From Pseudomonadota bacterium (GTDB lineage Bacteria > Desulfobacterota > Desulfobaccia > Desulfobaccales > 0-14-0-80-60-11), in NCBI GenBank assembly GCA_018897875.1, contig JAHIKF010000156.1, positions 1 to 34,663 of the forward strand: a DNA stretch of 34,663 bases, given 5' to 3'. The position numbers were made by a program, and so were the translations under genes. Below the pieces are notes generated by a model. The model saw only the letters and a list, made by a program, of their open reading frames with translations, had not been told where the DNA came from and did no database searches. Positions 2,937-22,267 of the stretch are shown here, piece after piece. How positions within the stretch are numbered: position 1 is the stretch's first letter; each line of letters starts with the position of its first letter.

Positions 2937-3031
2937 AATTCACCTTTTGATCAGCGGCCAGCTTCAGGAAGACCCTGGGGCTGCGCTATCTTGCTCATGG
3001 CTGATTGCCGACGGCTGACTGTTTGGCAGAC

Positions 3032-5344
3032 CTATTCCCAGTCCATCTGCTCCTGGTTTTCCTGAGCATCCAGGGGCAGTCTAATGGTGAAATCAGTGCC
3101 GCCACCGCGCGGGCTCTCCACCTCGATACTTCCGCCATGCCGTTGAATGACCCCATAGACGATGGATAGGCCCAGGCCGGTGCCTTTACCCGGAGGTTTG
3201 GTGGTAAAAAAGGGGTCAAAAATTTTATCCCGCAGTTCCGGTGGAATCCCACTGCCGGTATCCGCAAAAGTGATGATCACCCCATCTCTCTCAGGGGTAG
3301 CACAGCTGGTGATGGTGATCCTGCCCAGCCGGTTCATAGCGTCGGCGGCATTGAGCAGCAGGTTGGTAAAGACCTGCTGGAGTTCACCCGGATCGCCAAA
3401 AATCTGGGGCAGCTGGTGGTCCAGAGATAGTTTGATCTGGATATTTTGGAAAAGAAGCTGCTGGTCCATAAGCTTCACACACCGCGAGATGATTTCGTTT
3501 ATACTCAGGAGGGTTTTTTGCCCCAAAGACTGCCGGCTGAATTCCAGCAGGCGGGTGACAATTTGTTTACAACGCAGAGTTTGGTTGATGATTTCTTCTA
3601 TGTGGTCACGACCTGCGGCATTCGCCTCCATATGCCGCTGCAATAATTCAGCATAAATGAGGATGCCGGCCAGGGGATTATTGATTTCATGGGCCACCCC
3701 CGCGGCTAACTGCCCCAGGGAGGCAATCTTTTCAGCCTGCAAAAGTTGATTTTGGGTCTCTTCCAGTTTTTTTTGCATCCTTCGATGTTGGCGCAGGTCG
3801 GAAAAGATTCCGACGCTGCCGACTTCTTGCCCCTTGTCCCTGATAATCGCGGCCGAAAACCTCACCGGCACTTCCTCTCCATCTTTATTATAAAAGGTGA
3901 TCTCGGTGGTATTGAGTCGGTCAGGTTGACCGTATTCGCCACTGCGCATCCGGCGCATCATCTCTTTGGCCAATTCGAGCGGATAGAACCGGTGTAATCT
4001 TTTTCTATCGGCGATGACCTCCCCGGCCTGGTAACCCAGGATACGTTCGGCTCCTTCACTAAAAATTAAGGGGCTCCCTTTGGTGTCGATCACCACGATG
4101 CCGTCCACCGAACAACGGATTATATTGCTAAGAAAGATATTGGTTTTTTTAAGTTGTTCATGCATCCTGATGCGTTGGGTGAGGTCACGCAGGTAAATGC
4201 AGGTGAGAATATGTTTGCCGATCTGGGACGCCGCCATGCAGGTCTCGAAGACGCGGTTTTCCTCCGGGTGTATATACGTCCCGTTAAGGGTGGTGCAAAA
4301 TTGTACTTCTTCCTGGCGGTCTTGTTCTCCCATACTTGTCAGTTCCACCGCCATTTTATGATGCTGGGGGGTGAGGATTTCCTCCAGGCTCTTTCCGACC
4401 AGCTCCTCCTTGGACCGTCCGATTATTTCGGCCATCTTTGAGTTGGCAAAGATGATGCGCTGATTCTCATCAGCCATCAGCATGCCTTCTTGGGTCAACT
4501 CGGTGATCAAATCGAGCTTGCGTTCCGCCTCCACTATGGGAGTGATATCCCGAACCGCCTCAAAGCCGCCGATGACCCGGCCCTCGGGGTCGGTGATAAT
4601 GGAGGCGTAGACCGTCACCGGGACTTCCTGGCCGTGCCGGGTCCGCACTACCCGCCGCACCCCGGAGAAGGCCTTTTTCTGGAGCATAACCTGCTTGAGG
4701 ACGCAATCGGCGGTATTGCACTGGACGGTATTCAGCAACTCCCCGCAGGTCATGCGGCCCACCACCTCGCTCCGGGAGTAGCCGCTGAGCTTCTCCATGC
4801 GCTCGTTGAGGTGGGTGACCATTAGAAACGGGTCCACCATGAAGAAGGGTATGGGGAAATTTTCCAGGATGCTGGAGAGGGTCGCCATCTGCTGTGCCAT
4901 CACCGGGTGGGCCAGCAAATCGGCGTGCTCCCGGATGAGGATGAAACAGCCGGCCTTTTGGTTATCGGCGCCCCGGATGGGAGTGGCGCTGAGGGAGAGG
5001 GGGGCGCCCAGGGGCCACCGCGTCTTCAGCAGAACGGGCGCCTGCCGGTAGCTCTCCCCCAGCTGGGGGCACGGCTCGGGCCGGGAGGCGTCCTGGCCGG
5101 TCCCCTCAATAATGGCGGTTTTCGAACAGATGGGACAGGGGCCCCCCGGACGCAGGGACTCCCCAAAGAGTTTCTGTGCGGCGCAATTGAGAAAAACCAC
5201 CTCCCGGTCGCGGTTGGTGACCACCACCGGATCGGGGAACTCCTCCAGGAGCGGACCCAGGAACTCCACCGGCATGGCGGCGGCCCCGGTTAACGCCGGG
5301 GGCGCGTCAGGTCCGCTCGGGGGGGCATCGTGCTCTGATTTCAT
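3032..5344 (-). CDS. cytoplasmic multi-PAS sensor histidine kinase (about four PAS-like modules + HisKA + HATPase_c)
   Basis: The track ORF runs to 5440, but its first 32 codons read through an inverted-repeat element. The Met at 5344 (MKSEHD...) is preceded by GAGAAGGAAC (SD-like). H-box [12 protein letters not shown]-box [11 protein letters not shown]-boxes DTGSGIP and GTGLGLSIV. No hydrophobic TM segment seen. Confidence 0.85.
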
Positions 5345-5402
5345 GGTCCGTTCCTTCTCGCTGGCATAGAGCGAGAGATAAACTCGTTCCCGAGTTCCTG
5401 CC

Positions 5403-5580
5403 TTGAAAAGTGTCTCCGTAGGGTGCGTCCTACGCACCAACTAATCAGCGGAATTGGCGGGCAGTGCCCGCCCTACATATCTCTTCATCATTAGTGGCAC
5501 AGGCCTCTGGCCTGTGGGAAGCAGAGTATGACAGTGTAGCTATTGGTGCGTAGGACGCACCCTACGAAAGACTTTTCAGA
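5403..5580. repeat. MITE/REPIN-like element, about 180 bp, with terminal inverted repeats enclosing further GC hairpins
   Basis: 5417-5440 (CGTAGGGTGCGTCCTACGCACCAA) is the exact reverse complement of 5544-5567. The match extends outward through TGAAAAGT after a 4-5 nt divergent patch. Internal hairpins at 5457-5476 (GGCGGGCAGTGCCCGCC+CTAC) and 5497-5517 (CACAGGCC-tct-GGCCTGTG). No coding capacity. Confidence 0.5.
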
Positions 5581-5591
5581 AAAAACTCACC

Positions 5592-6647
5592 TCAGCGCTC
5601 GGCTGGCGCCGGAGCGCATTCCACCGGGGCGGCAAAGGTGTTCCCCAGGATTACCTGGGCCGCGGCCAGCTCGTGCTGGCGAATGATCAGCGAGATCGAC
5701 GAGATGGTGCAGCTCAGGGCCAACAGGGAGATGTGGGCCGTCTCCAGGGCCGCAACCAATGTGTGGGCGATGCCGTAGCGGTCGCCGAAATGGGGGCCGT
5801 GGAGAAAAATGCCCGCCACCGGGGTGAGGCGCATGGGCTGGAGATCCGGCAGATGGCTTGTCAAAACCCGCCGCACTTCGTCCCCGTGATCCAACCCGCC
5901 GGGTTGGCGCCGGGCCGTGGAAAACGACAGGATGAATTCTTGGCCTCCGAGCCCCGGCAGGGCCACCAAAAACGGTATGGCCAGGCCCAGTTTGCCCATC
6001 TCCATCAGCGCCGTGGCAAACCCGGCCAGGATGTCGGCGGTGGCAATGCTCATGCCCCAGAGGTCCAGGTCCGATTGCGGGATAATCCAGTACACCTTGT
6101 TGACCTTCTCCTGGTAGGTGGCCACCACTTTCTCCAGGTATTCCTTGGGAGGGGCCTGGGCGGAAAAAAATTCCTCGGGGGAGGCGAAACCCGGAAAGGT
6201 GAAATGCTCGAACAACTGTGCCACGGCGGGCTTGATACGCCGGGACGACAGCACCGCGGAGATGGCGGAGGGGGAGCTGGCCAGGCCGTGGATCACCACC
6301 CGGGCTCGGGCCAGGCTCCTGATGAACGTACCTATGACTTCGGGGCGCTTGTCATGGGGGTAAACGGCCAGGATCGAGGTGCCCGGCTGCAAGGCCAGCC
6401 AGGCGGCGGGGTCGGCCCGGGACTGCAGCAGGGTTAGAGCGGCTTCCCCATTGTGGCTGGCGGTGCACAGCACCTCGCGATCGCCAGACACGTGGGTAAA
6501 AAAGGTCAGGTTGAGGCGCTGTTGGGCCAGCGGCGCACACACCGAAGGCCCCAAGCGGTTATCTTCCAACGGGGAGGAAGACTCCACGCAGGCGCCCTCC
6601 TCCAGGACTTTAAGGCCACCTATCCTGATCCGTTCGAATTTTTTCAA
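5592..6647 (-). CDS. hypothetical protein built from ACT-like repeats (aspartokinase C-terminal-like regulatory fold)
   Basis: 351-aa ORF starting at TTG. The C-terminal segment GPHFGDRYGIAHTLVAALETAHISLLALSCTISSISLIIRQHELAAAQVILGNTF follows the ACT pattern of aspartokinase regulatory domains, and 2-3 weaker upstream repeats resemble it. Function is not assignable from sequence alone. Confidence 0.55.
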   Translation of the reverse strand: MKKFERIRIGGLKVLEEGACVESSSPLEDNRLGPSVCAPLAQQRLNLTFFTHVSGDREVLCTASHNGEAALTLLQSRADPAAWLALQPGTSILAVYPHDKRPEVIGTFIRSLARARVVIHGLASSPSAISAVLSSRRIKPAVAQLFEHFTFPGFASPEEFFSAQAPPKEYLEKVVATYQEKVNKVYWIIPQSDLDLWGMSIATADILAGFATALMEMGKLGLAIPFLVALPGLGGQEFILSFSTARRQPGGLDHGDEVRRVLTSHLPDLQPMRLTPVAGIFLHGPHFGDRYGIAHTLVAALETAHISLLALSCTISSISLIIRQHELAAAQVILGNTFAAPVECAPAPAER

Positions 6648-6672
6648 AGTTCGTCGGAGTCATGCCTGATGG

Positions 6673-7053
6673 TTAAAGTAATCTTTCGACCGCTTCCACC
6701 AGGGTGGCCGCATCCACGGGTTTGGGAATAAAATCTTCGGCTTCCACGCTCATCCCATCGGCATGGCTATAGCTGGTGGTAGGCACAGCCTCGCCCACCG
6801 CGGTGAGCAAAATGACCGGTATTTCCTTGGTCCACTTGTTGGATTTCAATTCCTTGCACAGCTCGTAGCCATTCTTTCTAGGCATCATCACGTCCAGAAT
6901 CAATACGTCCGGACGGCGTTTTTTAATGGCTTCCTCCCCTTCGATCCCGTCGTAAGCCTTCCCCACCTCAAAGCCCTTGGACTCCAGCATCATGGATACG
7001 GTTTCCACCAGATCCGGATCGTCGTCGACGATCAGTATGTACTTTGCAGACAT
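6673..7053 (-). CDS. single-domain CheY-like response regulator receiver
   Basis: 126-aa ORF with the canonical residues: ILIVDDDP (acidic pair), VLILDVMMP (phospho-Asp), VILLTAV (Thr), FIPKPV (Lys). SD-like GGGGAGG lies upstream of the ATG. Confidence 0.9.
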   Translation of the reverse strand: MSAKYILIVDDDPDLVETVSMMLESKGFEVGKAYDGIEGEEAIKKRRPDVLILDVMMPRKNGYELCKELKSNKWTKEIPVILLTAVGEAVPTTSYSHADGMSVEAEDFIPKPVDAATLVEAVERLL

Positions 7054-7166
7054 GAGACCTCCCCTTTCAAGATGATCGTACTGCCATTATGAACGCAAAC
7101 TGGATAAATTACAAGGCTCATGAGGCCTCTAACGGATTTGGCGAAATTTTATGGCTCTCCCCGGGC

Positions 7167-8102
7167 TTAGGCCAACTGGGGTCTGGGAAAGAGGCCGCCC
7201 CGTTCCACGATTTCCCCGACTTTTTCTTCCCACTCGATGGCCATGATGTGGAAGCCCCGCACGCCTTCCACCTCTTTCAGTTCCTGGATCTGCTCCACCG
7301 CCAGGGTGAGGCCTTCTTCGGCCTGCTTTTCCTTGGGGACGCCGCCGATGCGCCTGATGATGTCGTCGGGAACATCTATGCCCGGGACCCGTTTCTGCAT
7401 GTACTTGGCCATGCCGACGTTTTTCATGGGGGTGATCCCGGCCAGGATGGCCACTTTTTCATGCAAACCCCGGTCCACCATCAGTTTCATGAACTCTTTG
7501 AACGTGTCCATGTTGTAGATGCACTGGGTCTGGATAAACTGCACCCCGGCCGCCACTTTCTTGGCCAGCCGGGACACCCGCATGGCCACGTTGGGCCCGG
7601 CGAAGGGGTTGGCCGCGGCGCCGATGTACATCTGGGGGCGCACCGCAAATTCGTGGCCGCCCAACAGCTTGCCCTCATCCCGCATCATCTTCACGGTCTG
7701 GATGAGCTGGATGGAATCCAGGTCAAAGACGTTGGCGCACTTGGGGTGGTCCCCGAAGTGCTGGTGGTCCCCGGTGAGGCAGAGTATGTTGTTGATGCCG
7801 AAGGAGGCCGCCCCCAGAATATCGCTCTGGAGGGCGATGCGGTTTCGGTCCCTGGTCACCATCTGGAGACAGGCCTCCAGCCCCATGAGCTTGAGGCGGA
7901 TGCAGCAGGCCAGGCTACAGACCCGGCACACCGACGTCTGGTTGTCCGTCACGTTGATGGCATCGACGTAATCCTTGATCAGGTTGCCCTTGTGCTCGAT
8001 CACGGCGCCATCGGCGCTCCGGGGCGGACCCACCTCGGAAGTGACCGCAAAGTTGCCCGAGTCGATCATCTTCTGCAGTTTGCTGGGAGTAGTCACACTC
8101 AT
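7167..8102 (-). CDS. metF: methylenetetrahydrofolate reductase, acetogen/Wood-Ljungdahl type
   Basis: 311-aa ORF. MTHFR-family motifs FAVTSEVGPP, INVTDNQ, ILCLTGDHQ, VQFIQTQCIY. The start overlaps the metV stop (ATGA-type coupling at 8099-8102). Confidence 0.9.
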   Translation of the reverse strand: MSVTTPSKLQKMIDSGNFAVTSEVGPPRSADGAVIEHKGNLIKDYVDAINVTDNQTSVCRVCSLACCIRLKLMGLEACLQMVTRDRNRIALQSDILGAASFGINNILCLTGDHQHFGDHPKCANVFDLDSIQLIQTVKMMRDEGKLLGGHEFAVRPQMYIGAAANPFAGPNVAMRVSRLAKKVAAGVQFIQTQCIYNMDTFKEFMKLMVDRGLHEKVAILAGITPMKNVGMAKYMQKRVPGIDVPDDIIRRIGGVPKEKQAEEGLTLAVEQIQELKEVEGVRGFHIMAIEWEEKVGEIVERGGLFPRPQLA

Positions 8103-8767
8103 ATCCGTAAATCCTCTCTGACGATGGTGCGCGGCCCGCCGTCCCGGGAAGTGCTCCAGTCTTTGGGATCCACGGGTTTTTCAAAGCGGTCCAGTTGCCC
8201 CAGGGTTTTCAGCCGTTCATAGATCAGCTCCCAGCCGCAGGGGATATCTTTGTTGATTTCGCACTTGCCCGCATCAGAGCCGCCGCAGGGGCCGTTGAGC
8301 ATGCGCTTGGAACAGCGGGCGATGGGGCAGATGCCGCCGGTCTCGGCCAGGATGCAGCGGCCGCACGCCTGACAGCGCTCGACATAGAGCCCCCGCTCCT
8401 CGTTGACCCCCAAAAAGCAGGTGTCCACCCCGGGGTAGATGATTTTGTTGTTATACATCTCCGCCATGTACTGGACCCCGCAGCCGCAGGCCAGGGAGAC
8501 CACGGCGTCATAGATGTCCATCTTGTCGGAGAGTTGCGCCAGATATTCCTTTTCGCACTGCCGAGTCAGGCTGGTTTCGTCAATCTGGGCCTGCTTGCCG
8601 GCCTGGGTGAAGTAGAGCCTGAGAGCCGAAGCCAGCACCTTGGCTTCTTTCATGCCGCCGGCTTCGCACACGGTAACGCAACCGTCGCAACCGACAATCA
8701 GCACTTTGGTGAAGTCTTTGACCTGGCCGAGGACTTCTTCCAACGGTTTGGGCACTGCCTTTATCAT
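8099..8767 (-). CDS. metV: MetV: Cys-rich MTHFR C-terminal-domain-like partner subunit of MetF
   Basis: 222-aa ORF with the hallmark ICPIARCSKRMLNGPCGG motif plus further Cys clusters (GCDGCVTVCE, CQACGRC). The start overlaps the mvhD stop (ATGA at 8764-8767). Confidence 0.85.
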   Translation of the reverse strand: MIKAVPKPLEEVLGQVKDFTKVLIVGCDGCVTVCEAGGMKEAKVLASALRLYFTQAGKQAQIDETSLTRQCEKEYLAQLSDKMDIYDAVVSLACGCGVQYMAEMYNNKIIYPGVDTCFLGVNEERGLYVERCQACGRCILAETGGICPIARCSKRMLNGPCGGSDAGKCEINKDIPCGWELIYERLKTLGQLDRFEKPVDPKDWSTSRDGGPRTIVREDLRI

Positions 8768-9219
8768 GTGGTTACCTCCGCAATTGGCCCGGTGGCCTTG
8801 CCTGTCGCAACTCTGATGGGACTGGGACCCAGTTCCATTATTTTTTCAGTGATCTCCCGGACAATCTCGGCGAACCGCCCTCCCATCCCGGAAGACAGAT
8901 TATACATCGCCAGCCGTTCGCCGCCGACGCCGACTTTGTCCAGGATCTCTTTCACCCGGTTGACCCGTTTTTTGGCGTACAGATTTCCGGCGCTATAGTG
9001 GCAGTCTCCCTCCAGGCAGCCCACCACGATGACCCCGTCGGCCCCGTACTCAAACGCCATCAGCAGGTGCATAATATCCACCTTGCCGGTGCAGGGTACC
9101 TCGATGATGCGCACGTTGGGCGGGTACTGCAATCGCATCGAACCTGCCAGGTCCGCGGCGGAATAAGCTCAGTAGTGGCAGCAAAACCCGACAATCTTCG
9201 GCTCAAACGATTCCATCAT
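8764..9219 (-). CDS. mvhD: MvhD-like (methyl-viologen-reducing hydrogenase delta subunit family) protein with in-frame TGA at 9169-9171 read as selenocysteine
   Basis: The track ORF (8764-9138) starts inside the conserved MvhD N-terminus. Reading the same frame upstream gives ATG ATG GAA TCG TTT GAG CCG AAG ATT GTC GGG TTT TGC TGC CAC TAC TGA GCT TAT TCC GCC GCG GAC CTG GCA GGT TCG ATG, i.e. MMESFEPKIVGFCCHY-U-AYSAADLAGSMRLQYPPNVRII. This matches the family pattern FEPKIV.F.CNWCSYAGADLAG..R.QYPPN.RII, with TGA at the second Cys. A strong SD (TGAGGAG) sits 5 nt before the ATG at 9219, just after the hdrL stop at 9228. Confidence 0.8.
9139..9155 (-). other. candidate SECIS-like hairpin downstream of the mvhD UGA
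   Basis: The mRNA sequence CGGACCU-GGC-AGGUUCG forms a 7-bp stem including one G-U pair, starting 13 nt after the UGA. The position fits a bacterial SECIS, but the 3-nt loop is small and no covariance model was run. Confidence 0.3.
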
Positions 9220-9227
9220 CGGACTCC

Positions 9228-12200
9228 TCAGTATAAGGTTTTGATCTTGGCGCTGATCTGGTCGTCTTCAAAATGGGCCACCTGGATGACCTTGGCCGGA
9301 CATTCCGAGGCGCAGGTGCCGCAGCCCTGACACAGGGCCTCGTTGATCTCCGAGACGTTGTCCCGGTTGATCTGCGGGATGCCGTAAGGACAGGTCCGGA
9401 CGCACACCAGGCAGGCGGCGCACCGGTCCGGCTCCACATGCGCAGTGACCCCGCTGATGGTCTGGTTGACGTCCGCCAGGAACGCCCCGGCCCGGGCCGC
9501 CGCGGCCATGGCCTGGGCGATGCTCTCGCCGATAAGCTTGGGCGAATGCGCCATGCCGCACAGGAAGATGCCTTCCGAGGCAAAATCCACCGGCCGCAGC
9601 TTGGCGTGGGCCTCGATGAAAAACCCGTCGGCGTTCCGGGGGATTTTCAGGAGCGAGGCCAATTCCTCGGTATCATTGGCCCGGGCCCCGGCGCTCAACA
9701 CCACCGCGTCCACGGCCATGCTCACCGGGCGCTCCAGCACATGATCCACAAAGGTGACGCTCAACTGGCCGTTGTCATTAGTAACCTGGGGCAAACGGTC
9801 CGGATCGAACCGGGAAAAGAGCACCCCCTTGTCCCGGGCCTCCCGGTAAAAATCCTCCAGGAACCCATAGGTGCGCATGTCCCGGTAGAGGATCACCACG
9901 TCCATGTCGGGGTTGAGTTCCTTAAGCTGCAAGGCGTACTTCACCGCCCCCTGGCAGCAGATGCGGCTGCAGTTGGGGCTCTCCTCATTCCGGGAGCCCA
10001 CGCACTGCACCATGACCACCCGGTCCCACTTGGCGGCTTCATCCTTCGTTTTATGGAGAAAATCGCCCAGTTCCAATTGGGTCATCACCCGCGCGTGTTC
10101 CCCGTAGAGAAATTCCTTGGGGTGATACTCATGGGCGCCGGTGGCCACCACGGTGATCCCGTGGTCGATTTTCCGCTCGTACATGCCGGGCCCCACCAAA
10201 ACTTCGGTGGTGAAGTTGCCTTTGTAGCCGCTAAACCCCACCACCAGGGCCCCGGTGAGCACCTGGATCTTGGCGTGGCCCTTGACCCGCTCGATGAGCC
10301 CGTCCAGGTAGGCCTGAACGTCCAGGCCCTCGATAGTCTTGTGGACCCGGCGGCCTATGCCGCCCAACTGCGGCTCTTTCTCCAGGAGGATGGTCTCGAA
10401 TCCCTGGTCGCCCAGATTGAGGGCGGCGTTGAGGCCGGCGATGCCGCCGCCGATGACCAGGGCCCGCTGGTTGATGCTCAGGGGCTTTTCCAGCAACGGC
10501 TTGAGCAGGGAGGCCCGGGCCACCGCCATCCGCACCAGGTCTTTGGCCTTGTCCGTGGCCTTGTCGTGCTCCTTCATGTGCACCCATGAATCCTGGTTGC
10601 GGATGTTGGCCATCTCAAACAGATATTTGTTCAGGCCGGCGTCGATCAACGTATCCCGGAACAGGGCCTCGTGGGTGATGGGGGTGCAAGCCGCCACCAC
10701 CACCCGGTTGAGGTTGTGTTCCTCGATGATCCGGGTCATGGTGACCTGGGTGTCCTGGGAGCAGGTGAACAGGTTGTCTTCCACGTACGCCACGTTGGGC
10801 AGCGTCTTGGAGTATTCCGCCAGCGCCGGCACGTCTATGATACCGCCGATGTTGATGCCGCAGTTGCAGACGAACACCCCGATGCGTGGGGCGTCCTCCG
10901 GTTTGATGTCCTTGGGTGTGGGCGCCTGCCGGGTCTTGGTCTCGGTCCAGCGGACGTCCCCCAAAGAGGCGCTCACCGCCCCGGCCGCGGCGGATGCCTG
11001 CATGACCGATTCGGGAATGTCTTTGGGACCCTGCATGGCCCCGCAGACATAGATGCCAGGACGGCTTGCCGTCACCGGCGCCAAGGGCGAGGTGGCCACA
11101 AAATCGTGAGCGTTGGTCTCCACCTTCAGGGTCGCAGACAACTCCCGGGCGCCCTGGCTCACCTCCATGCCCACGGACAGCACGATCAGGTTAAAGGCCT
11201 CGGTCTTCTCGGCGCCGCTTTCATCCACAAACCGGATCTGCAAATCACCATCCGGCAAGGGATCGATGCTGTGGATGCGGGACCGGATAAACCGCACCCC
11301 GTGTTCGTCTTTGGCGCGGTTATAGTAGAGTTCGAAGTCTTTGCCGTAGGTCCGCATGTCCATGAAAAAGATGGCGGCGTCCAGCGGATACGGCGCGTGC
11401 TCCTTGGCGATCACCGCCTCTTTGATGGCGTACATGCAGCAGACCGAGGAGCAGTAGGTGTGGTATTTAACATCCCGGGAGCCCACGCATTGGAGCCAGG
11501 CGATCTTCTTGGGCTCGGCGTGGTCCGAAGGCCGGACCAGGTGGCCGCCGAAGGGCCCGGAGGCCGAGAGAATCCGCTCGAACTCCAGGGAGGTCACCAC
11601 ATTGGGCAAACTGGAGTAATGGTAAGTCTCGCACTTGACGGGACTGAAGGCCTCAAATCCCGGCGACAGGATCACGGCCCCCACCTGAACCTCTTTGGTT
11701 TCGGCGGCCATGGTGTGGTCGATGGCCCCGGCCTGGCAGGCGACGACGCACTGCATGCACTCGGAGCAGACCCCGCAATTGAGGCATCTCGCCGCCTCCC
11801 GCTGGGCCTGGTCCTCGGTGTAACCCTGGGCAATTTCATCAAAGCAGGCGCAGGTATGCTCCGGCGGCAGGGCCGCCATCACTTCCCGGGGCGCGCCGGT
11901 TTCATCTTTGGGAATCTCGGCCCAGCGTTTGTGGGCCTCCTCGCCGATGGCGCGGCCCTCAACCATGTCCACACGCCTAAGATAGCGGTCGATGGATTCC
12001 GCGGCTTCGATGCCGCCTCCCACCGCTTCGATGGCAATCCAGGGGCCGGTGTGCACATCGCCGGCGGCAAAGACCCCGGGCCGGGAGGTCTCGTAGGTTA
12101 CTTCATTGACTTCAATGGTGCCCCAGCGGCTCAGCTTGACGCCGCAGGCCGCTAAAGGCCCCTGGGCCGCTTCCTGGCCGATGGCCGGCACCACCATGTC

Positions 12201-13682
12201 CACCGGCAGTTCGAACTCGGCGCCTTCGATGGGCACCGGCTTGCGCCGCCCAGAGGCATCCGGTTCGCCTAATTCCATCTTTTGACAGATGAGGCCTGTG
12301 ACCTTGCCGTCGTGATCGGTGACCGTTCTCAAAGGCGCGGCCAAATAGACGATCTCTACCCCTTCGCAGGTGGCCTGCTCGACTTCATGAGCAAAGGCGG
12401 GCATTTCTTCCCGGGACCGGCGGTAGACGATGGTCACCTCGGAGCCCAGCCGCCGGGCGGTGCAGGCCACGTCGATGGCCACGTTGCCGCCGCCGATGAC
12501 CGCCAGCCGTTTCCCCACGGTCAGGGGTTCTTTCAGGTTCGCCCGGCGCAGAAATTCCACGCCCTGGATAACGCCCTGGGCCTCCTCCCTGGGAATCCCC
12601 AGGGGTTTGCCCACATGGCAGCCGATCCCCAGAAACACGGCCTTATAGCCTTCTTCCAGCAGCTCATCCAGGGTAAAATCCCGGCCCAGGGCGGTGTCGG
12701 TCTTCAGTTCCACCCCCAGGCGCAGGATGTTGTCGATTTCACGGTCCAGGATGTCCTTGGGCAGGCGGTAGTCGGGGATGCCCACCCGCAGCATGCCGCC
12801 GGCCTTAGGCAAGGCCTCCAGGATGGTGGGCCGGTAGCCTTTCAGCGCCAGGTGATAGGCGCAGGCCAAACCCGCCGGGCCGGAGCCGATGATGGCGACC
12901 CGGTCGCTTTTGGCCTCCACCAGCGGCGGCGAGATGGTGCTCAGGTCCACCTGGTCGGCGGCAAACCGCTTCAGATTGCAGATGGCCACGGACGCATCCA
13001 TTTCGGCCCGCCGGCACTTGTCCTCGCAGGGATGGGGGCAAACCCGGCCCAGGACCCCGGGCAGCGGCAGCCGCTCCATGATGAGCTTCACCGCCTCCTC
13101 GTATTTGCCCATCTTGATCAGCTGGACATAGCCCTGGACATTGATCTCCGCCGGACAGGTCAGGGAGCACGGGGCCCGGTCCAGCTTCTTGATGCCGAAG
13201 GCCGCCGGGATCGCCTGAGGATAGAGGCGATAGACCGCCTTCCAGTCGGCCAGGCCGGCGTTAAAGGCGTCCGACATGGTCACCGGGCAGACGTTGGCGC
13301 ACTCGCCGCACCCGGTGCACTTGGCAGGGTCAACATAGCGAGGCTGTTTCTTCAGGGTGACGCTGAGGTTTCCCGCCTCCCCGTCAATGGCCGCCACATC
13401 GGTGAGAGTGTGAATCTCGATATTCAAATGCCGGCCGCACTCCACCAGCTTGGGGGAGATAATGCACATGGAGCAGTCGTTGGTGGGGAAGGTCTTGTCC
13501 AACTGGGCCATAACCCCGCCGATGGCCGGCTTGGTTTCCACCAGATGAACATAGAAGCCCGAGTTGGCCATATCCAGGGCCGCCTGGATGCCGGCGACGC
13601 CGCCGCCCACCACCATCACCGCGCCCACGTTGCCGGAACGCTGGGTTGATTCCTGAGCCGTCACGTCTTTTTCTTGGGGCAT
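9228..13682 (-). CDS. hdrL: giant HdrA-family fusion flavoprotein (HdrL-like): HdrA-like FAD domain with inserted NfnB/GltD-like NAD(P)H:FAD module, followed by a complete second HdrA unit with C-terminal 2x[4Fe-4S] ferredoxin domain
   Basis: 1484-aa uninterrupted ORF. Unit 1: VVGGGVAGIQAALDMANSG, GGVMAQLDKTFPTNDCSMCIISPK, CTGCGECANVCP. Insert: GRVCPHPCEDKCRR, VAIIGSGPAGLACAYHL, LAVIGGGNVAIDVACTARRLG..VTIVYRRSREEMPA, VFAAGDV. Unit 1 continued: WLQCVGSRD...YCSSVCCMYAIKEA. Unit 2: RIGVFVCNCGINIGG, LVIGGGIAGLNAALNL, MVQCVGSRNEESPNCSRICCQGAVKYA, CAACLVCVRTCP, CQGCGTCASECP. Confidence 0.9.
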   Translation of the reverse strand: MPQEKDVTAQESTQRSGNVGAVMVVGGGVAGIQAALDMANSGFYVHLVETKPAIGGVMAQLDKTFPTNDCSMCIISPKLVECGRHLNIEIHTLTDVAAIDGEAGNLSVTLKKQPRYVDPAKCTGCGECANVCPVTMSDAFNAGLADWKAVYRLYPQAIPAAFGIKKLDRAPCSLTCPAEINVQGYVQLIKMGKYEEAVKLIMERLPLPGVLGRVCPHPCEDKCRRAEMDASVAICNLKRFAADQVDLSTISPPLVEAKSDRVAIIGSGPAGLACAYHLALKGYRPTILEALPKAGGMLRVGIPDYRLPKDILDREIDNILRLGVELKTDTALGRDFTLDELLEEGYKAVFLGIGCHVGKPLGIPREEAQGVIQGVEFLRRANLKEPLTVGKRLAVIGGGNVAIDVACTARRLGSEVTIVYRRSREEMPAFAHEVEQATCEGVEIVYLAAPLRTVTDHDGKVTGLICQKMELGEPDASGRRKPVPIEGAEFELPVDMVVPAIGQEAAQGPLAACGVKLSRWGTIEVNEVTYETSRPGVFAAGDVHTGPWIAIEAVGGGIEAAESIDRYLRRVDMVEGRAIGEEAHKRWAEIPKDETGAPREVMAALPPEHTCACFDEIAQGYTEDQAQREAARCLNCGVCSECMQCVVACQAGAIDHTMAAETKEVQVGAVILSPGFEAFSPVKCETYHYSSLPNVVTSLEFERILSASGPFGGHLVRPSDHAEPKKIAWLQCVGSRDVKYHTYCSSVCCMYAIKEAVIAKEHAPYPLDAAIFFMDMRTYGKDFELYYNRAKDEHGVRFIRSRIHSIDPLPDGDLQIRFVDESGAEKTEAFNLIVLSVGMEVSQGARELSATLKVETNAHDFVATSPLAPVTASRPGIYVCGAMQGPKDIPESVMQASAAAGAVSASLGDVRWTETKTRQAPTPKDIKPEDAPRIGVFVCNCGINIGGIIDVPALAEYSKTLPNVAYVEDNLFTCSQDTQVTMTRIIEEHNLNRVVVAACTPITHEALFRDTLIDAGLNKYLFEMANIRNQDSWVHMKEHDKATDKAKDLVRMAVARASLLKPLLEKPLSINQRALVIGGGIAGLNAALNLGDQGFETILLEKEPQLGGIGRRVHKTIEGLDVQAYLDGLIERVKGHAKIQVLTGALVVGFSGYKGNFTTEVLVGPGMYERKIDHGITVVATGAHEYHPKEFLYGEHARVMTQLELGDFLHKTKDEAAKWDRVVMVQCVGSRNEESPNCSRICCQGAVKYALQLKELNPDMDVVILYRDMRTYGFLEDFYREARDKGVLFSRFDPDRLPQVTNDNGQLSVTFVDHVLERPVSMAVDAVVLSAGARANDTEELASLLKIPRNADGFFIEAHAKLRPVDFASEGIFLCGMAHSPKLIGESIAQAMAAAARAGAFLADVNQTISGVTAHVEPDRCAACLVCVRTCPYGIPQINRDNVSEINEALCQGCGTCASECPAKVIQVAHFEDDQISAKIKTLY

Positions 13683-13724
13683 AATTCTATCCCTTATAAG
13701 CCTGATAAAATTCTCTGGAGTCCG

Positions 13725-14597
13725 CTATAAACCGGCCGCCGCCAGGATCGACGGTAGTTTGTCCTCCCACCCGATGGTGGAGACGAGCACTCCCGGGAAT
13801 CCCTGCTTTTTGACCGCAGCCAGGAATTCCGAGGCGATCTGCACACACTCCCGCACCCGGTCGGAGCTTTTATGAATCCGGGTGACGAAAGCTTCCGGGA
13901 TTTTCATCTCCATGTGGGCGTTGATGTAGCGGGCCATGCCCACACTCTTCAAGAGCATAACCGTGGGGATGATGGCCGCCTGGCGCTTGCCCACCTGATG
14001 CCGGAAATTTTTCAGAACTTCCACGTCGAAAACCGGCTGGGTGGTGAAAAACCGGGCCCCGGCGGCAATCTTTTGATCCAGGTCCGCCAACTCCTGCTTC
14101 AAGGCTCCGGCCTCGCTGGTCACCTTGACGGTGGCGCCCACCAGGAATTGCGGCGACCCTTTGAGATCCACCCCGGCCAGGTCCCGGCCGGTCTGCAAGG
14201 TTTGAATGGCCGCCAGCAAGTCCAGGAGATTTAGGTCGTTAACCGCCTTGGCCTGATGATGGTCGCCATGGGTGATTTCATCGCCGGACACCACCATGAC
14301 ATTGGCAACCCCCAGGGCCTGCGCCGCCAACAGGTCGCCTTGCAGCGCCAGGCGGTTGCGGTCCCGGCAGCAGACCTGCAGCACCGTTTCCAGCCCCTTG
14401 GTCTGCAACAGGAGCGCCCCGCCCAGAGAACTCAAGCGCATCACGGCGTTGTTCATCTCCGGGACCACAAAGGCGTCCACCATGCGTTTGACGCTGGTGG
14501 CGGCTCCCACCATGTCGGAAACATCCGTGCCTTTGGGCGGCTCGATCTCCGCCAGAATGACGAATTCGCCGGAAGTCAATTTCTCTTGTAATGGCAT
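13725..14597 (-). CDS. second methylenetetrahydrofolate reductase family paralog, with no adjacent MetV-like partner
   Basis: 290-aa ORF. MTHFR-like FVILAEIEPPKG, QVCCRDRNRLALQGDLL, VMVVSGDE, RFFTTQPVF. Clearly diverged from the 311-aa metF at 7167-8102. Confidence 0.85.
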   Translation of the reverse strand: MPLQEKLTSGEFVILAEIEPPKGTDVSDMVGAATSVKRMVDAFVVPEMNNAVMRLSSLGGALLLQTKGLETVLQVCCRDRNRLALQGDLLAAQALGVANVMVVSGDEITHGDHHQAKAVNDLNLLDLLAAIQTLQTGRDLAGVDLKGSPQFLVGATVKVTSEAGALKQELADLDQKIAAGARFFTTQPVFDVEVLKNFRHQVGKRQAAIIPTVMLLKSVGMARYINAHMEMKIPEAFVTRIHKSSDRVRECVQIASEFLAAVKKQGFPGVLVSTIGWEDKLPSILAAAGL

Positions 14598-14615
14598 CGC
14601 GGTCCCTCTCTGAGA

Positions 14616-15035
14616 TTATTGGGATGATCGCACCATGGCGTTCGAGATAGCTAAAATCAGATCATCCGGGCCAAAGGAGTTCACATGATAGTAAAAAATC
14701 CCCTGTTGCCGGATACGGCTTTCCTGTTCCGGATTGTTTTCATCCGCAGTAATGATGATGGGCAGCTTGCGGTCCAGGCCCTTGATGATGGAGATGGCCT
14801 CGTAACCCATATCTTCCGGCAGGCGCACATCCATGACCAGCACATTGATCTTTTCACTCTGCAGGGTCATGAGCAGGTCTTTGATGTTGTCCACGGCTTT
14901 GAGCCGGTGTCCCTGTTCGGTGACCCAGAAATCCAGATTCTGCGACAAGGCCCCGCCGCGTTCGGCGATCAACAGTGTGCCACCCTTTTCCGTCATCATT
15001 GGCGTCCCGGAATTCCCGAACCGAGTTACTGCCAC
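14616..15035 (-). CDS. degenerate (pseudo-)receiver domain protein, first gene of the operon
   Basis: Receiver-like fold: VLVMDVRLPEDMG keeps the Asp and PIIITAD keeps the Thr. The N-terminal acidic pair is replaced (LLIAERGG) and the conserved Lys position reads YHVNSF. The start is ambiguous: GTG at 15035 has no SD, and the ATG ATG at 14999 has only a weak SD. Confidence 0.6.
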   Translation of the reverse strand: MAVTRFGNSGTPMMTEKGGTLLIAERGGALSQNLDFWVTEQGHRLKAVDNIKDLLMTLQSEKINVLVMDVRLPEDMGYEAISIIKGLDRKLPIIITADENNPEQESRIRQQGIFYYHVNSFGPDDLILAISNAMVRSSQ

Positions 15036-15238
15036 TGTGATTGGTTGGTAATTGGTTCTTGTTTAAATAATGCAAGGCCTATGCCCTGAAGCGGGCGGCG
15101 GAAACCCCGCGCCCAGACTCATCCTTGGGAAAATAAGTTCAAGCTGTCAGGGGAGAATGCGGGAAGTTTTGGGGCAGAGAAAATAAGGCTACTTACATAT
15201 CTCATTGATATTGCAGCTTTTTAATAGATATGGGTAAA

Positions 15239-15266: not shown

Positions 15267-15370
15267 GTGGCTCAGGAGGCCTAGGCCCAGGTTTGGTTTC
15301 CGGGCCAGGCGCCCCAGCCGGAGTCTCAATCGCTAAACCAGATGGCTATTAGCTAACCGGAGCCTTTGGT

Positions 15371-15408
15371 GTTCCCCGGCGCTGCCGGCGCCAGGGAACA
15401 ACGGCTAC
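15371..15408. repeat. REP-like hairpin (GTTCCCCGGCGC-tgcc-GGCGCCAGGGAAC) followed by CTAC
   Basis: Imperfect palindrome at 15371-15398, CTAC at 15405-15408. Same design as the other GC hairpins in the window. Confidence 0.4.
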
Positions 15409-15531
15409 GGAAAAAATCTTTTTTTTCTGTCCCCCGAAACCGCGCCAATGGCATCAACACATTGATATAATGCGCTATTTCCCTTCTCACCGCCATACCT
15501 GACGATTCCGCGGGTTTTTCCTCAACCTGCC

Positions 15532-15561
15532 AGATTATTTGACAACCCGCTAGATTATTTG
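15532..15561. promoter_or_regulatory. direct repeat AGATTATTTG x2 with 20-nt phasing (candidate regulator site)
   Basis: AGATTATTTG at 15532-15541 and at 15552-15561, inside the 666-bp non-coding leader. Confidence 0.25.
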
Positions 15562-15643
15562 CCACTGCGCGGCTGCCTCGGACCATCATCTGACACCGGG
15601 CAACACTGTGACGTCACCATATACCAGATTGCAGTCAAAGGGT

Positions 15644-15692
15644 GGCACAGGCTTTCCAGCCTGTGCCGGGGCAGGCTAAAGCCTGCGGCTAC
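15644..15692. repeat. tandem REP-like hairpins with GTAG/CTAC, immediately downstream of trmO
   Basis: GGCACAGGC-tttcca-GCCTGTGCC (15644-15667), GCAGGC-taaa-GCCTGC (15671-15686), CTAC at 15689-15692. The first stem is related to the 5497-5517 hairpin. It may double as a transcription stop for trmO, but no U-tract follows on the minus strand. Confidence 0.45.
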
Positions 15693-16473: not shown

Positions 16474-17066
16474 TCAATGGTCGTGATTCAAACGCCCGTC
16501 TTTCAGATGGTAGACGGAGTCGAAACCCTCGATCATCCGCACGTCATGGGTCACCACGATGACCGCCGACTGGTTCTCTTTGGCGATCTTCTTCAGCAGT
16601 TCCATGACCCTTTTGCCGCGCCCGGTATCCAGCGACGCGGTGGGTTCATCAGCCAGGATGAGCCGGGGATTGTTGGCCAGGGCCCGGGCGATGGCGACCC
16701 GCTGTTGTTCGCCGCCGAAGAGGAGGGCCGGGAGATAATCGGCCCGCTCACTGATTTCCATGTATTCCAGGAGTTCCCGGACCCGGGCCTCGGCCGCCTC
16801 GCCTTTTATGCCCACCAGGCTTAACGGGAAGAGCACGTTCTGGCGCGCGGTCAAAAAGGGGATGAGGTTATGGGATTGGAAAATAAAGCCCATCTTTTCC
16901 CGGCGGATACGGCGGATATCAACGCCGGCCCAGCCGTTTTGTTGGTGGATGGTCTCGCCGTCGAAGACGATCTTGCCGCTGGTGGGCTCCAAAATCAGGC
17001 TGGCGCAGAGCAGCATGGTGGTTTTGCCCGAACCGCTGGGTCCCAGGAGCGCCACCAAATCGCCGC
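16474..17066 (-). pseudogene. ABC transporter ATP-binding protein (MacB/LolD-type), 5'-truncated
   Basis: Intact from the Walker A onward: GDLVALLGPSGSGKTT, Q-loop, [31 protein letters not shown]. The roughly 30 codons before Walker A (MGNRWCTCRCPTPRKSCFSGTMRKSATSAG) are the out-of-frame reading of permease-coding DNA. Confidence 0.65.
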
Positions 17067-17068
17067 CC

Positions 17069-17665
17069 GCGCTGGTTGCGGATTTCCTCATTGTCCCGCT
17101 GAAACAGGACTTCCTGGGCGTCGGGCAGCGACAGGTACACCAGCGGTTCCCCATCGGGCGAGATCGCCTCTCGGGTCAAACCCACCACCGTATAGGTATG
17201 GAGCCCCAGGGGGACCTGGTCTCCCAGCTTCACCCCCAGCTTTTCGTGAGCCACCATCTCGTAGTGGGCCCGGGCGATACTCCGGCCGGCGTGAATCTTT
17301 TGCGGGCCGCCCAACCCGTCAAAGACGTCATAGCCGATGATGCTGAAATGCCGGCTCTGGCCGCCCACCTGTCTTTCCACGGTATAAAAAATAAAGGGGC
17401 TGGCCTGCTCCACCCCGGGGATGGCCTTGACGCTGTAATGGTAAAACTCCGGCATGGTGGACGTTTCATTGAACGGCCCGCCGCGCTGCCGTTCCACCAC
17501 CCACAGATCGGGATTCGTGGCCTTGATAACCGCCAGGCCTTCGTGAATGTTGCCCCGGTACAGGCCATTCATGGCCAGGACGATGGTAAATAAAAGGCCC
17601 ACGCCGATCACGGTGGCGATAAACCGGCCCTTATGCAGCTTCAGGTCGTGGACGGCCAGATCCAT
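17069..17665 (-). pseudogene. FtsX/MacB-type ABC permease, N-terminal fragment only (TM1 + periplasmic domain)
   Basis: MDLAVHDLKLHKGRFIATVIGVGLLFTIVLAMNG (TM1) is followed by a periplasmic-domain-like sequence up to ...LSLPDAQEVLFQRDNEEIRNQR. The frame then runs into ATPase DNA out of frame. The C-terminal three-TM FtsX domain (about 200 aa) is absent. Confidence 0.65.
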
Positions 17666-18746
17666 TAATTGCCCTGGGCCGCGGCGGGCTGGAGTTCCGG
17701 CCGGATCTTTTTCCCCGGTGCCATGCCGATGGGGTTAAGGATGACCAATTCCCCGGCCTTCAGGCCCGTTAGCACCGCGGTCTGTTTGCCATCGTTAAGC
17801 CCAGGGTAACCTTCCGGAAGCGCACCAGGCCCTTATCCGCCACCAGGACGCCCTGTAGGCCGTTTTGGCTCCTCAGGGCCGACAAGGGAATGCCGGGGCC
17901 AGTCTGGCGCCCGGTATCAATATCCACTTCGGCTTCCTCGCCCATGACCAGGGGTTCGGGCAGTTGGGCGAATTTTACATTCACCTCCAATTCCCGGGTA
18001 ACGGTGTCCGCCTCCTGGTTGAGCCGGGCGACTTCACCCTGAAATAACCGCCCGGAGCGCAGCTTGATGGCCGCGGGCTGACCGGCCTGCAATTGGGCCA
18101 CCTGGGTGGCATCGATCCAGGCCGCCACCCAGATCTGGTTCAGGTCCACCATTTGGAAGATGGGACTGCCCGAGGGCACCGTGGTTCCCACTTCCGCCTT
18201 GCGCACGGTAATCAAGCCGTCCATGGGGGCGACGATCCGGGTATAGCCGTGCAGCGCCTCAGCCGCATGGGTTTCCGATTCCGCCTGTTTGACTGAGGCC
18301 TGCATGGCCGTTACCGCGGCCTGAAACGCCGCGACTTCGCTTTCGGCTACCCGGAGTTGGGCCTTGGTGGTGTCAAAGGAGGCTTTAGAGATGTCGCCGG
18401 GTTTGAATACCTCCAGGTCCCGCTGGTAATTGCTTCGGGCCAGGCCCAAGTTGGCCTGGGCCTTGACCAGGTCGGCCTGGGACCGGGCCAGGTCCCGTTG
18501 GGCCCGGCTCCTGGCCCCCTGATCGGCATAGAGTTTTTCCAGGATGCCGGTGATCTTGGGGCTCACGGTTACCGGCACCTTGCACTGCACCGTACCCGGG
18601 CCGTGCACCCGGCCGTGAATTTCCACCTGCTGGACCGCGATGACCGGCACCGGCGGCCTATACCAGACCAGGCGGTAGCCCAGCAGAATGATGATGAGAA
18701 TGCCGCTGCCGGCCCACACCGCCTTCTTGCCATGCGGCATTTTCAC
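17665..18746 (-). pseudogene. HlyD-family periplasmic adaptor (membrane fusion protein) with a 3' frameshift
   Basis: The track ORF stops at 17769 (..VTLGLTMANRPRC*). Shifting one base near 17793-17800 continues as DGKQTAVLTGLKAGELVILNPIGMAPGKKIRPELQPAAAQGN*, the canonical MFP C-terminus. That reading ends in TAATG overlapping the permease start at 17665. Confidence 0.7.
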
Positions 18747-22242: not shown

Positions 22243-22267
22243 CCTGACCGGAGGTTATGACCACCCC

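Follow-up and report, generated by a model that had tools for sequence, protein, structure and literature searches.

An Hdr-type methylene-tetrahydrofolate reductase gene cluster without neighboring hdrB and hdrC in an uncultured Desulfobaccales-like bacterium

We analyzed a contig of 34,663 nt (34.6 kb; JAHIKF010000156.1, assembly GCA_018897875.1), here called the window, from an uncultured bacterium of the Desulfobaccales. Its minus strand carries six genes related to the type IV (Hdr-type) methylene-tetrahydrofolate (methylene-THF) reductases (MTHFRs). In the order of transcription, these encode a degenerate receiver protein (REC; 14616-15035; 139 aa; Pfam Response_reg), MetF2 (13725-14597; 290 aa; Pfam MTHFR), a large HdrA-family protein which we refer to as HdrL (hdrL/hdrA, 9228-13682; 1484 aa; Pfam Pyr_redox_2, Fer4_20, Fer4 and FAD domains), MvhD (first called at 8764-9138 with a product of 124 aa; Pfam FlpD [MvhD], 2.2e-39), MetV, the Fe-S/zinc subunit of the MetVF reductase (8099-8767; 222 aa, 24.5 kDa; DUF5981, the MTHFR C-terminal family PF12225, 1.9e-37), and MetF, the catalytic MTHFR subunit (7167-8102; 311 aa; Pfam MTHFR, PF02219, 7e-38). 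These open reading frames (ORFs) and their Pfam assignments agree with the six genes listed in an earlier interpretation made from the DNA letters (the sequence-only reading). Gaps of 18 nt between REC and metF2 and of 42 nt between metF2 and hdrL were read in the sequence, the corrected mvhD start described below lies 8 nt after the hdrL stop, and the ATGA stop/start overlaps reported earlier at 8764-8767 (mvhD/metV) and 8099-8102 (metV/metF) could be read directly. As in known type IV clusters, metV directly precedes metF, and mvhD lies between hdrA and metV. The remaining hallmark of such clusters, hdrB (two CCG domains) together with hdrC (2x[4Fe-4S]), was not found within the 34.6 kb.

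This absence, also claimed by the sequence-only reading, held in every search of the window. No CCG (HdrB-type) domain was detected by Pfam searches of all large ORFs, by a CCG motif scan, or by a hidden Markov model (HMM) that was built from the CCG proteins of related loci and run on every ORF of 60 aa or longer in all six frames. The ferredoxin motif CxxCxxCxxxC[P/A/G] did not occur in the window outside hdrL. The motif scans and the six-frame HMM search likewise revealed no hdrB, hdrC or ferredoxin gene hidden in small or alternative-frame ORFs. Nor do hdrB and hdrC lie just beyond the window in the same transcript, as had been raised earlier, because both ends of the operon lie inside the window, flanked by 7 kb of signaling genes at one end and, at the other, by 660 bp of intergenic DNA followed by unrelated genes.

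The hdrL product (computed mass, 160.9 kDa) is predicted to be a fused pseudo-dimer of two HdrA units, with the ferredoxin insert of unit 1 interrupted by a GltD/NfnB-like module. The first part of unit 1 (aa 22-166; 13185-13619, minus strand, as for all parts of the protein) aligns to HdrA residues 146-290 or 154-296 and contains the FAD-binding start of a domain resembling thioredoxin reductase (TrxR), together with the initial half of the inserted ferredoxin domain (C122-C132); C70 and C73 are the equivalents of HdrA C194/C197. It is followed by the GltD/NfnB-like insert (aa 168-648; 11739-13181; Pfam Fer4_20, Pyr_redox_2 and Pyr_redox), which comprises a [4Fe-4S] domain, an FAD site and an NAD(P)H site with VYRRS after beta-2. 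The best structural matches of the insert, 9bov_A, 9n5u_A and 8oh5_C (1e-111 to 1e-130), are NADPH subunits of Stn/NfnABC-type enzymes and rank ahead of NfnB (4ylf_B, 2.5e-93) and GltD. The second part of unit 1 (aa 649-907; 10962-11738) aligns to HdrA 293-516 and holds E702, K754 and the remaining TrxR-like domain with a C732/C744/C748/C749 cluster; structure matching placed the rest of this first HdrA domain at residues 637-907. Unit 2 (aa 930-1484; 9231-10895; aa 930-1108 correspond to HdrA 3-188 and aa 1338-1481 to HdrA 501-650) consists of an N-terminal-type [4Fe-4S] domain, a second TrxR-like FAD domain (E1204, K1248) without inserted ferredoxin domain, and a C-terminal 2x[4Fe-4S] ferredoxin domain. 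The N-terminal domain is absent from unit 1, which keeps the Cys194/Cys197 equivalents, whereas unit 2 has this domain and, by its sequence, lacks these equivalents; such a complementary pseudo-dimer was noted earlier for the HdrA of Moorella (Chadwick et al. 2022).

The cofactor signatures for which the sequence-only reading had proposed a domain search are present, both as Pfam matches and as GxGxxG motifs: FAD-type motifs occur at residues 26, 266 and 1078, and an NAD(P)H-type motif occurs at residue 397. The NfnB/GltD-like NAD(P)H:FAD module that it had described corresponds to residues 168-648, which match StnA, NfnA, NfnB and GltD chains and contain the motifs at 266 and 397. Across 80 family sequences, 36 Cys residues are conserved in at least 90%, by our estimate enough for eight or nine [4Fe-4S] clusters, and E702/K754, to which E356/K409 of Methanothermococcus thermolithotrophicus HdrA map, are invariant (80/80). 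In methanogen HdrA, this Glu/Lys pair lies on either side of the bifurcating flavin, and it is used as a signature of bifurcation. No NfnA/PyrK-like partner (NAD_binding_1, DHODB_Fe-S_bind) was found among the large ORFs of the window; with the NfnB-like part present and this partner not found, the module is predicted not to be an Nfn transhydrogenase. At the nucleotide site after beta-2 (HdrL residues 419-424; window ∼12411-12428), YRR, which is NADPH-like, occurs in 63/80 sequences including that of the window, and is replaced by the NADH-like [C/M/S]LE in 17/80, all of them metVF-linked. This pattern suggests a nucleotide-specificity switch within the family, and the YRRS of the window suggests that its module uses NADPH.

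Comparison with known systems shows that the large protein belongs to a described family. The HdrA of Moorella thermoacetica has 1487 aa, 162.8 kDa, eight clusters, three FAD and one NAD(P)H site, and the pairs E696/K750 and E1204/K1246 (PMC9430772). Compared through this published description and its coordinates rather than by direct alignment, it is nearly equal in length and mass to the window protein, places its E/K pairs at almost the same positions, and has the same plan, in which a ferredoxin-plus-TrxR unit is split by a GltD module and followed by N-domain, TrxR domain and C-terminal ferredoxin domain, with no second inserted ferredoxin domain. The GltD insertion therefore does not set the window apart from Moorella, as the sequence-only reading had supposed. 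The comparison also drew on three Bacillota loci (L060, L064 and L077), which encode full-length HdrL relatives (50-52% identity) adjoining mvhD-metV-metF. Because the landmarks match those of Moorella HdrA and the Bacillota relatives adjoin these genes, we conclude that the protein is, on sequence grounds, the HdrA of a type IV MTHFR and not a new fusion. The order hdrA-mvhD-metV-metF is likewise common to the window and to the Moorella MetFV-HdrABC-MvhD cluster (Moth_1191-1196). Real differences, as predicted from the genes, are the missing HdrBC, the added metF2 and degenerate REC upstream, and selenocysteine (Sec) in MvhD; further differences from Moorella are the predicted sigma-54 and two-component control and the host, a Desulfobaccales-like sulfate reducer in which the pathway probably runs in the oxidative direction.

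Other relatives share parts of this design. The HdrCBA-MvhD-MetVF system of Sporomusa ovata has the MetVF core, MvhD and an HdrA with two TrxR domains, one flavin of which has the E/K signature, and its MetVF-MvhD-HdrA contacts have been shown experimentally (PMC9430772). However, its HdrA (101 kDa) has no GltD/NAD(P)H module, HdrCB is present (PMC9430772), and the enzyme is partly membrane associated and coupled to H2 and quinone, whereas the window genes encode no membrane link. The window protein also has the features by which HdrL was defined (Strittmatter et al. 2009), an HdrA with a glutamate-synthase-type NAD(P)H module followed by mvhD, as in Desulfobacterium autotrophicum HRM2 and Syntrophobacter fumaroxidans. 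Several MvhD proteins of this group contain Sec, like the MvhD of the window. In contrast to those loci, the HdrL of the window itself has Cys, not Sec, and it is a metVF-linked paralog, while the HdrL proteins of D. autotrophicum and S. fumaroxidans have been tied to sulfite reduction, DsrC or NADH cycling rather than to MetF; 32 non-linked paralogs mostly precede an MvhD of the Cys type (C-[N/H]-W-C). With the methanogen MvhAGD-HdrABC complex (5ODC, 8RVU), the window shares the HdrA fold units, the cluster Cys residues, the E356/K409 FAD site and the [2Fe-2S] connector MvhD, and its fused pseudo-dimer mimics the methanogen HdrA homodimer; it differs in having neither hydrogenase nor HdrBC, in the splitting of the ferredoxin-binding inserted domain by the NAD(P)H module, and in its acceptor, a folate enzyme instead of heterodisulfide. 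Residues 168-648 form the same [4Fe-4S]-FAD-NAD(P)H module as in NfnAB, GltD and Stn/NfnABC, and a like insertion in the same ferredoxin domain occurs in HdrA9-11 of ANME-1, where, unlike in the window, the HdrA-NfnB fusions are unlinked to metFV (Chadwick et al. 2022).

The mvhD gene proved to be longer than first called. Its upstream in-frame translation reads MMESFEPKIVGFCCHY*AYSAADLAGSMRLQ... from an ATG at 9219 that lies behind a GGAG, and the 124-aa call begins past the interrupting codon. This UGA (codon 17; 9169-9171, minus strand) takes the position of the second Cys in the N-terminal CxxC motif of MvhD, and its in-frame read-through as Sec would yield a 151-aa protein beginning MMESFEPKIVGFCCHY-U-AYSAADLAGSMRL... 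(8764-9219, minus strand). The codon is shared by orthologs, being TGA in 43/48 mvhD genes that precede metV and Cys in the other 5/48; the 29 mvhD genes next to hdrL paralogs without metVF encode C(N/H)WC, with Cys at this position. Beginning 13 nt past the UGA lies a 17-nt hairpin (CGGACCUGGCAGGUUCG; 9139-9155, minus strand) that resembles a selenocysteine insertion sequence (SECIS), with a 7-bp stem, which was also predicted by RNAalifold, and a GGC loop. Of the 41 distinct UGA-form sequences, 40 share the same central 15 nt (GGACCUGGCAGGUUC), even at synonymous sites. The exception, in L037, carries one change; the final base is G or C. In the five Cys-form genes, these sites vary. No catalogued SECIS around mvhD was matched in Rfam at E<=5, and since single-sequence folding was not significant (z-score, 0.38), the synonymous-site comparison was used instead. 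The full-length MvhD matches positions 1-131 of 132 in the NCBI VhuD model, and the gene called at the mvhD position of NCBI contig JAHIMJ010000470.1, which encodes an identical MetF, has a 150-residue product. Given the conserved UGA, the near-invariant hairpin, the VhuD match and this 150-residue product, we conclude that mvhD is predicted to encode a 151-aa selenoprotein. Its near-exclusive association with metVF makes Sec-MvhD look like a subfamily specific to metVF clusters. A second candidate selenoprotein gene in the window, for a molybdopterin oxidoreductase (24782-26977), was rejected, as its start is normal and its frame contains no UGA.

MetF and MetV are predicted to form the catalytic core. 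The equivalents of E28, D120 and Q183 of the Escherichia coli enzyme are present in MetF and invariant across 46-47 orthologs, with S/T-G-D in 47/47 and T-Q-C in 46/47. MetF2 is 29% identical to MetF and matches Pfam MTHFR over its full length (7e-31). The window copy also retains all three equivalents, with GD and TQ. Across the MetF2 clade (27 sequences), however, the residue at the D120 position varies among E, G, V, Q and K and is followed by an acidic residue, and the Q183 position is occupied by P, N, T, H, G or S. The clade does keep the equivalent of E28 as well as the motifs RDRNR and GDH. We thus regard MetF2 as an accessory, remodeled paralog from a divergent and conserved clade, which probably binds flavin in combination with a changed folate pocket. 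An AlphaFold2 model of MetF2 made from a shallow alignment (79-93% identity) was unusable, with a mean pLDDT of 47. The proposal of the sequence-only reading that the locus encodes two catalytic MTHFR paralogs is weakened by this loss of D120 and Q183 equivalents, both kept in MetF. The gene metF2 lies directly upstream of hdrL in ∼19 loci, at distances of 37-202 bp, and the HdrL proteins of metF2-containing loci form one clade.

To place the cluster among its relatives, one genome per species was scanned for relatives of the large protein. More than 593 were found and the best 80 were kept; their retrieved flanks (L001-L080) were searched by tblastn with the window proteins. The core hdrL-mvhD-metV-metF is syntenic in 47/79 related loci, from Desulfobaccales, Desulfobacterales, Syntrophobacteria, Desulfarculales, strain NaphS2, Bacillota, Anaerolineae and Aminicenantes. 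Core synteny in so many loci of many lineages argues that the arrangement is not due to chance. The neighborhood survey that the sequence-only reading had called for also recovered the full order REC-metF2-hdrL-mvhD-metV-metF in L001-L007 and L009, with partial truncation in L002 and L004. The HMM search detected no CCG gene in the flanks of L001-L007. The type IV MTHFR, HdrL and Sec-MvhD families are already known, as is the bifurcation hypothesis taken up below. Particular to this locus and its relatives are the HdrBC-less metF2 arrangement, the association of Sec-MvhD with metVF, and the modularity of CCG/DsrMK accessory genes; we found these three undescribed in the literature searched, where an earlier mention is possible. 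The same search, of incomplete coverage, yielded no description of the hdrL-mvhD-metVF(+metF2) arrangement in Desulfobacterota.

Our preferred interpretation, to which we assign a probability of roughly 40%, is that the locus encodes an HdrBC-less type IV MTHFR of a Desulfobaccales-like sulfate reducer, with ferredoxin, bound at the C-terminal 2x[4Fe-4S] domain of HdrA, as the third partner. Ferredoxin is the simplest choice because the locus has no CCG module. The complex would probably be NAD(P)H-linked and bifurcating or confurcating. Electrons would pass between NAD(P)H, the GltD-type FAD, a [4Fe-4S] chain and the HdrA FAD at E702/K754, and from there by way of the MvhD [2Fe-2S] cluster, MetV and the MetF flavin to the methylene/methyl-THF pair. 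Confurcation is proposed because methyl-THF (-200 mV) cannot by itself reduce NAD(P)+ (-320 mV), such a reaction being endergonic. When the acetyl-CoA pathway runs oxidatively, electrons from methyl-THF would thus be combined at the HdrA flavin with those of a low-potential donor and passed to NAD(P)+. This donor would be reduced ferredoxin from carbon monoxide dehydrogenase, docking at the C-terminal 2x[4Fe-4S] domain of HdrA and balancing the reduction of NAD(P)+. For CO2 fixation, the same reaction could run in reverse. Put forward by the sequence-only reading as a new proposal, the NAD(P)H/ferredoxin/methylene-THF scheme stands as an idea but is not new, since it is the bifurcation hypothesis of Mock 2014 (as quoted in PMC5861303 and PMC6295475), which Timmers et al. 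2018 ran backwards as confurcation in syntrophic acetate oxidizers (PMC6295475).

Consistent with this interpretation are the gene content and tight packing, the synteny of the core, the mapping of HdrL onto HdrA, NfnB and GltD, the motifs for three FAD and one NAD(P)H, the 36 conserved Cys residues and the invariant E702/K754. It is also in line with the absence of CCG and HdrC genes from the window and from its closest relatives L001-L007, and with the sigma-54 element and signaling cassette described below. Further agreement comes from the architecture and residue numbering shared with Moorella HdrA, whose complex oxidizes NADH and, with viologen, reduces methylene-THF (PMC9430772, PMC5861303); from Sporomusa, where MetVF, MvhD and HdrA/B interact, as seen in pull-downs (PMC9430772); and from the earlier proposal of oxidative confurcation for syntrophic acetate oxidizers (PMC6295475).

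Several points weigh against it. In the window protein, the ferredoxin-binding inserted domain of the methanogen type is split by the GltD module in unit 1, and unit 2 lacks it. The absences found at the locus cover this one stretch of the genome, and the scheme leaves a choice between NADH and NADPH. With viologen as acceptor, preparations of the six Moorella proteins oxidize NADH, and with reduced viologen as donor they reduce methylene-THF (PMC9430772, PMC5861303), but the two reactions were uncoupled, ferredoxin was not used, and NADH-dependent reduction of methylene-THF was not observed (PMC13040438, PMC6295475). By April 2026, menaquinone was the favored candidate for the third carrier of the type IV enzyme in Moorella (PMC13040438, PMC6295475). 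Finally, a CCG gene lies within the retrieved flanks of 10/48 metVF-linked loci, so that a partner acting in trans is plausible.

This last observation leads to the best-surviving alternative, namely, that the HdrL-MvhD-MetVF core needs a CCG-type partner encoded elsewhere, such as HdrBC, an HdrD-like protein or a DsrMK-like membrane module. Through such a partner, methylene/methyl-THF and NAD(P)H would be linked to a thiol/disulfide couple (e.g., DsrC) or to menaquinone, as has been proposed for Moorella and Sporomusa. The slot beside the core indeed varies among relatives. Upstream of it, L075 carries hdrC and hdrB, and L060 and L064 carry an HdrD-like Fer4-CCG fusion. After metF, HdrC-like and CCG genes are found in L020 (9312-10607) and, directly following it, in L036 (16721-18050), the sister of the window's clade. 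L022 has genes for a NarI/DsrM-like membrane protein, Fer4_8, CCG and cytochrome c3 proteins after metF (8121-10113 and 12435-13652), and in L028 a CCG ORF (17705-18241) occupies the corresponding position. The modules of L020, L022, L028 and L036 suggest that the same core enzyme may be connected to quinone or DsrC. MetFV-MvhD genes are, moreover, often not colocated with HdrABC (Poudel 2018), HdrL of S. fumaroxidans is encoded beside HdrABC, the Sporomusa MTHFR is partly membrane bound and coupled to quinone analogues (PMC9430772), and models for Moorella use menaquinol (PMC13040438). With CCG modules in 10/48 metVF-linked relatives, the sister lineage L036 among them, the "self-contained" complex of the sequence-only reading is not established, and a partner encoded elsewhere therefore stays plausible. 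Nevertheless, the 34.6-kb window and the flanks of L001-L007 contain no CCG or HdrC gene, the operon encodes no membrane subunit, and 38/48 metVF-linked loci show no CCG gene nearby, which argues for the core as a conserved unit. We consider an obligatory partner in trans possible, though at a probability well short of even. Because the slot beside it varies, the four-gene core appears from these comparisons to be the conserved unit, with CCG modules being optional or encoded elsewhere, the same assumption made by Poudel et al. 2018, whose analysis also put the MetF of Desulfobacca acetoxidans in a basal position within the Met lineage regarded as putatively bifurcating.

We observed separately that an NfnA/PyrK-like FAD/[2Fe-2S]/NAD protein and two Fe-S proteins, together with the HdrD-like protein, are encoded immediately upstream of hdrL in L064 (5784-9926); with the NfnB-like insert, these would make a complete Nfn-like unit.

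A non-bifurcating enzyme, in which the HdrA flavins serve as wires and the GltD module feeds electrons from NAD(P)H to MetVF, much like RnfC2 in the type III enzyme of Acetobacterium, seems to us unlikely. GltD-type modules do serve as a plain NADPH entry in glutamate synthase and in the Stn/NfnABC-type enzymes that gave the best structural matches, HdrA homologs without bifurcation exist (Appel 2021, as cited in PMC9430772), and the canonical ferredoxin-binding insert is here occupied or missing. Yet three flavins, eight or nine clusters and the invariant E/K pair exceed the needs of a wire, and HdrA-containing preparations from Moorella oxidize NADH without using it to reduce methylene-THF (PMC13040438, PMC6295475). 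In the oxidative direction, such a reaction would also be endergonic by ∼23 kJ/mol at standard potentials, as calculated from values in PMC5861303 and PMC6295475.

Even less probable, although it overlaps with the other readings, is that MetF2 provides a second active site, for the other direction, for another pterin or in functional replacement of the HdrBC arm, giving two folate sites: the position of metF2 37-202 bp upstream of hdrL, in the slot held by hdrB or hdrD in L075, L060 and L064, the single clade of MetF2-linked HdrL proteins and the intact E28, D120 and Q183 equivalents of the window copy speak for it, but D120 and Q183 equivalents vary across the clade, there is no second metV, L020 has metF2 plus an HdrC-like/CCG pair, and ∼28 metVF-linked loci do without metF2. 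Since there is no second metV and L020 has both, two catalytic MTHFRs and a MetF2 in place of HdrBC are possibilities only; MetF2 as a simple replacement of HdrBC was rejected on account of L020.

Returning to the HdrBC-less type IV enzyme with ferredoxin as partner, a stronger version would hold that the four-subunit core (three-flavin HdrA, Sec-MvhD, MetV and MetF) is a complete, soluble and reversible NAD(P)H/ferredoxin/methylene-THF bifurcating enzyme, with MetF2 docking at the place of the acetogen HdrBC as a second folate/flavin site. We hold this version to be doubtful.

The genes around the core point to a dedicated control system. The product of the first gene, a stand-alone receiver protein, matches Pfam Response_reg (1.9e-12) and keeps the D57 equivalent and the Thr. 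In place of the acidic DD pocket stands E-R in the window and E-[R/H/Q] in all nine sequences compared, and the K109 equivalent is N in the window and N, I or K across the sequences. The protein thus has neither the DD pocket nor the Lys of a phosphorylatable receiver, and the label "pseudo-receiver" given to it by the sequence-only reading is reasonable. Judging from where tblastn matches to its orthologs start, it probably begins at ATG 14999 instead of GTG 15035. Just upstream lies a sigma-54-type -24/-12 element, GGGCAT-N5-TTGCA (15071-15086, minus strand), with GG at -24, GC at -12 and the appropriate spacing. Across the window, matches to the sigma-54 consensus are not above chance (12 found versus ∼19 expected), so that the site carries weight only because of its positional conservation: GGCA[C/T]-N5-TTGC occurs at the equivalent place in L006, L001, L007, L003, L005, L004 and L009, in flanks which cannot otherwise be aligned.

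On the other side of the operon, also on the minus strand, follow a canonical single-domain response regulator (6673-7053; Pfam 5e-27; DD, D57, T87 and K109 present), a protein with weak ACT_7 and ACT_9 matches (5592-6647), a PAS histidine kinase (3032-5440), a hybrid REC-PAS kinase (1434-2936) and a sigma-54 activator with REC, AAA+ and HTH domains (77-1453), the last three assigned by Pfam. The response regulator follows metF in ∼20 loci, and the ACT-domain protein follows the regulator in 11 (L001-L003, L005-L007, L009, L011, L013, L019 and L071). PAS and hybrid kinases are linked to metVF-hdrL clusters in ∼16 loci, and the whole signaling cassette (77-5440) is also found 3' of the operon in L001, L003, L005 and L007. 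The operon is thus probably expressed from the sigma-54 promoter under the control of the adjacent PAS-kinase/hybrid-kinase/activator cassette. Because promoter element and cassette are conserved together with the operon, the functional unit probably spans 77-15086 and is larger than the span first reported (7167-15035). About 450 nt upstream of the putative promoter, we observed a tandem 20-nt direct repeat (CAACCTGCCAGATTATTTGA / CAACCCGCTAGATTATTTGC; 15523-15562), which may be a binding site of the activator; GC-rich inverted repeats also occur at 15370-15400 and 15644-15667. A search of the whole window against Rfam, including the 660-bp leader, returned no riboswitch or other RNA at the gathering threshold, and the window contains no tRNA genes.

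Two further regions of the window drew our attention. In an HlyD/OEP efflux cluster, a MacB_PCD permease ORF (16919-17665, minus strand; 248 aa) has no FtsX-domain match and overlaps the next ABC ATPase ORF (16474-17154) by 236 nt; it may be a frameshifted or shortened permease. At 20512-23053 (plus strand), a 576-aa ORF fusing Memo and PGA_cap overlaps a patatin-like ORF by ∼430 nt, and the GC skew of this stretch is unusually negative (-0.11 to -0.14); the gene models there look uncertain.

If HdrBC is merely encoded elsewhere, the locus is one further member of a known family; a specialist will find it unsurprising, yet it gives a good handle on an open bioenergetic question. A widespread natural HdrBC-less form narrows the possible redox partners of the type IV enzyme and, for that reason, offers a cleaner target for purification and cryo-electron microscopy. 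The Sec-MvhD subfamily, the switch between YRR and [C/M/S]LE, and the swappable CCG/DsrMK modules provide experimental handles. Should the core indeed be a complete soluble bifurcating enzyme, complete-oxidizing sulfate reducers would have in it the energy-coupling MTHFR that has long been sought for the acetyl-CoA pathway.

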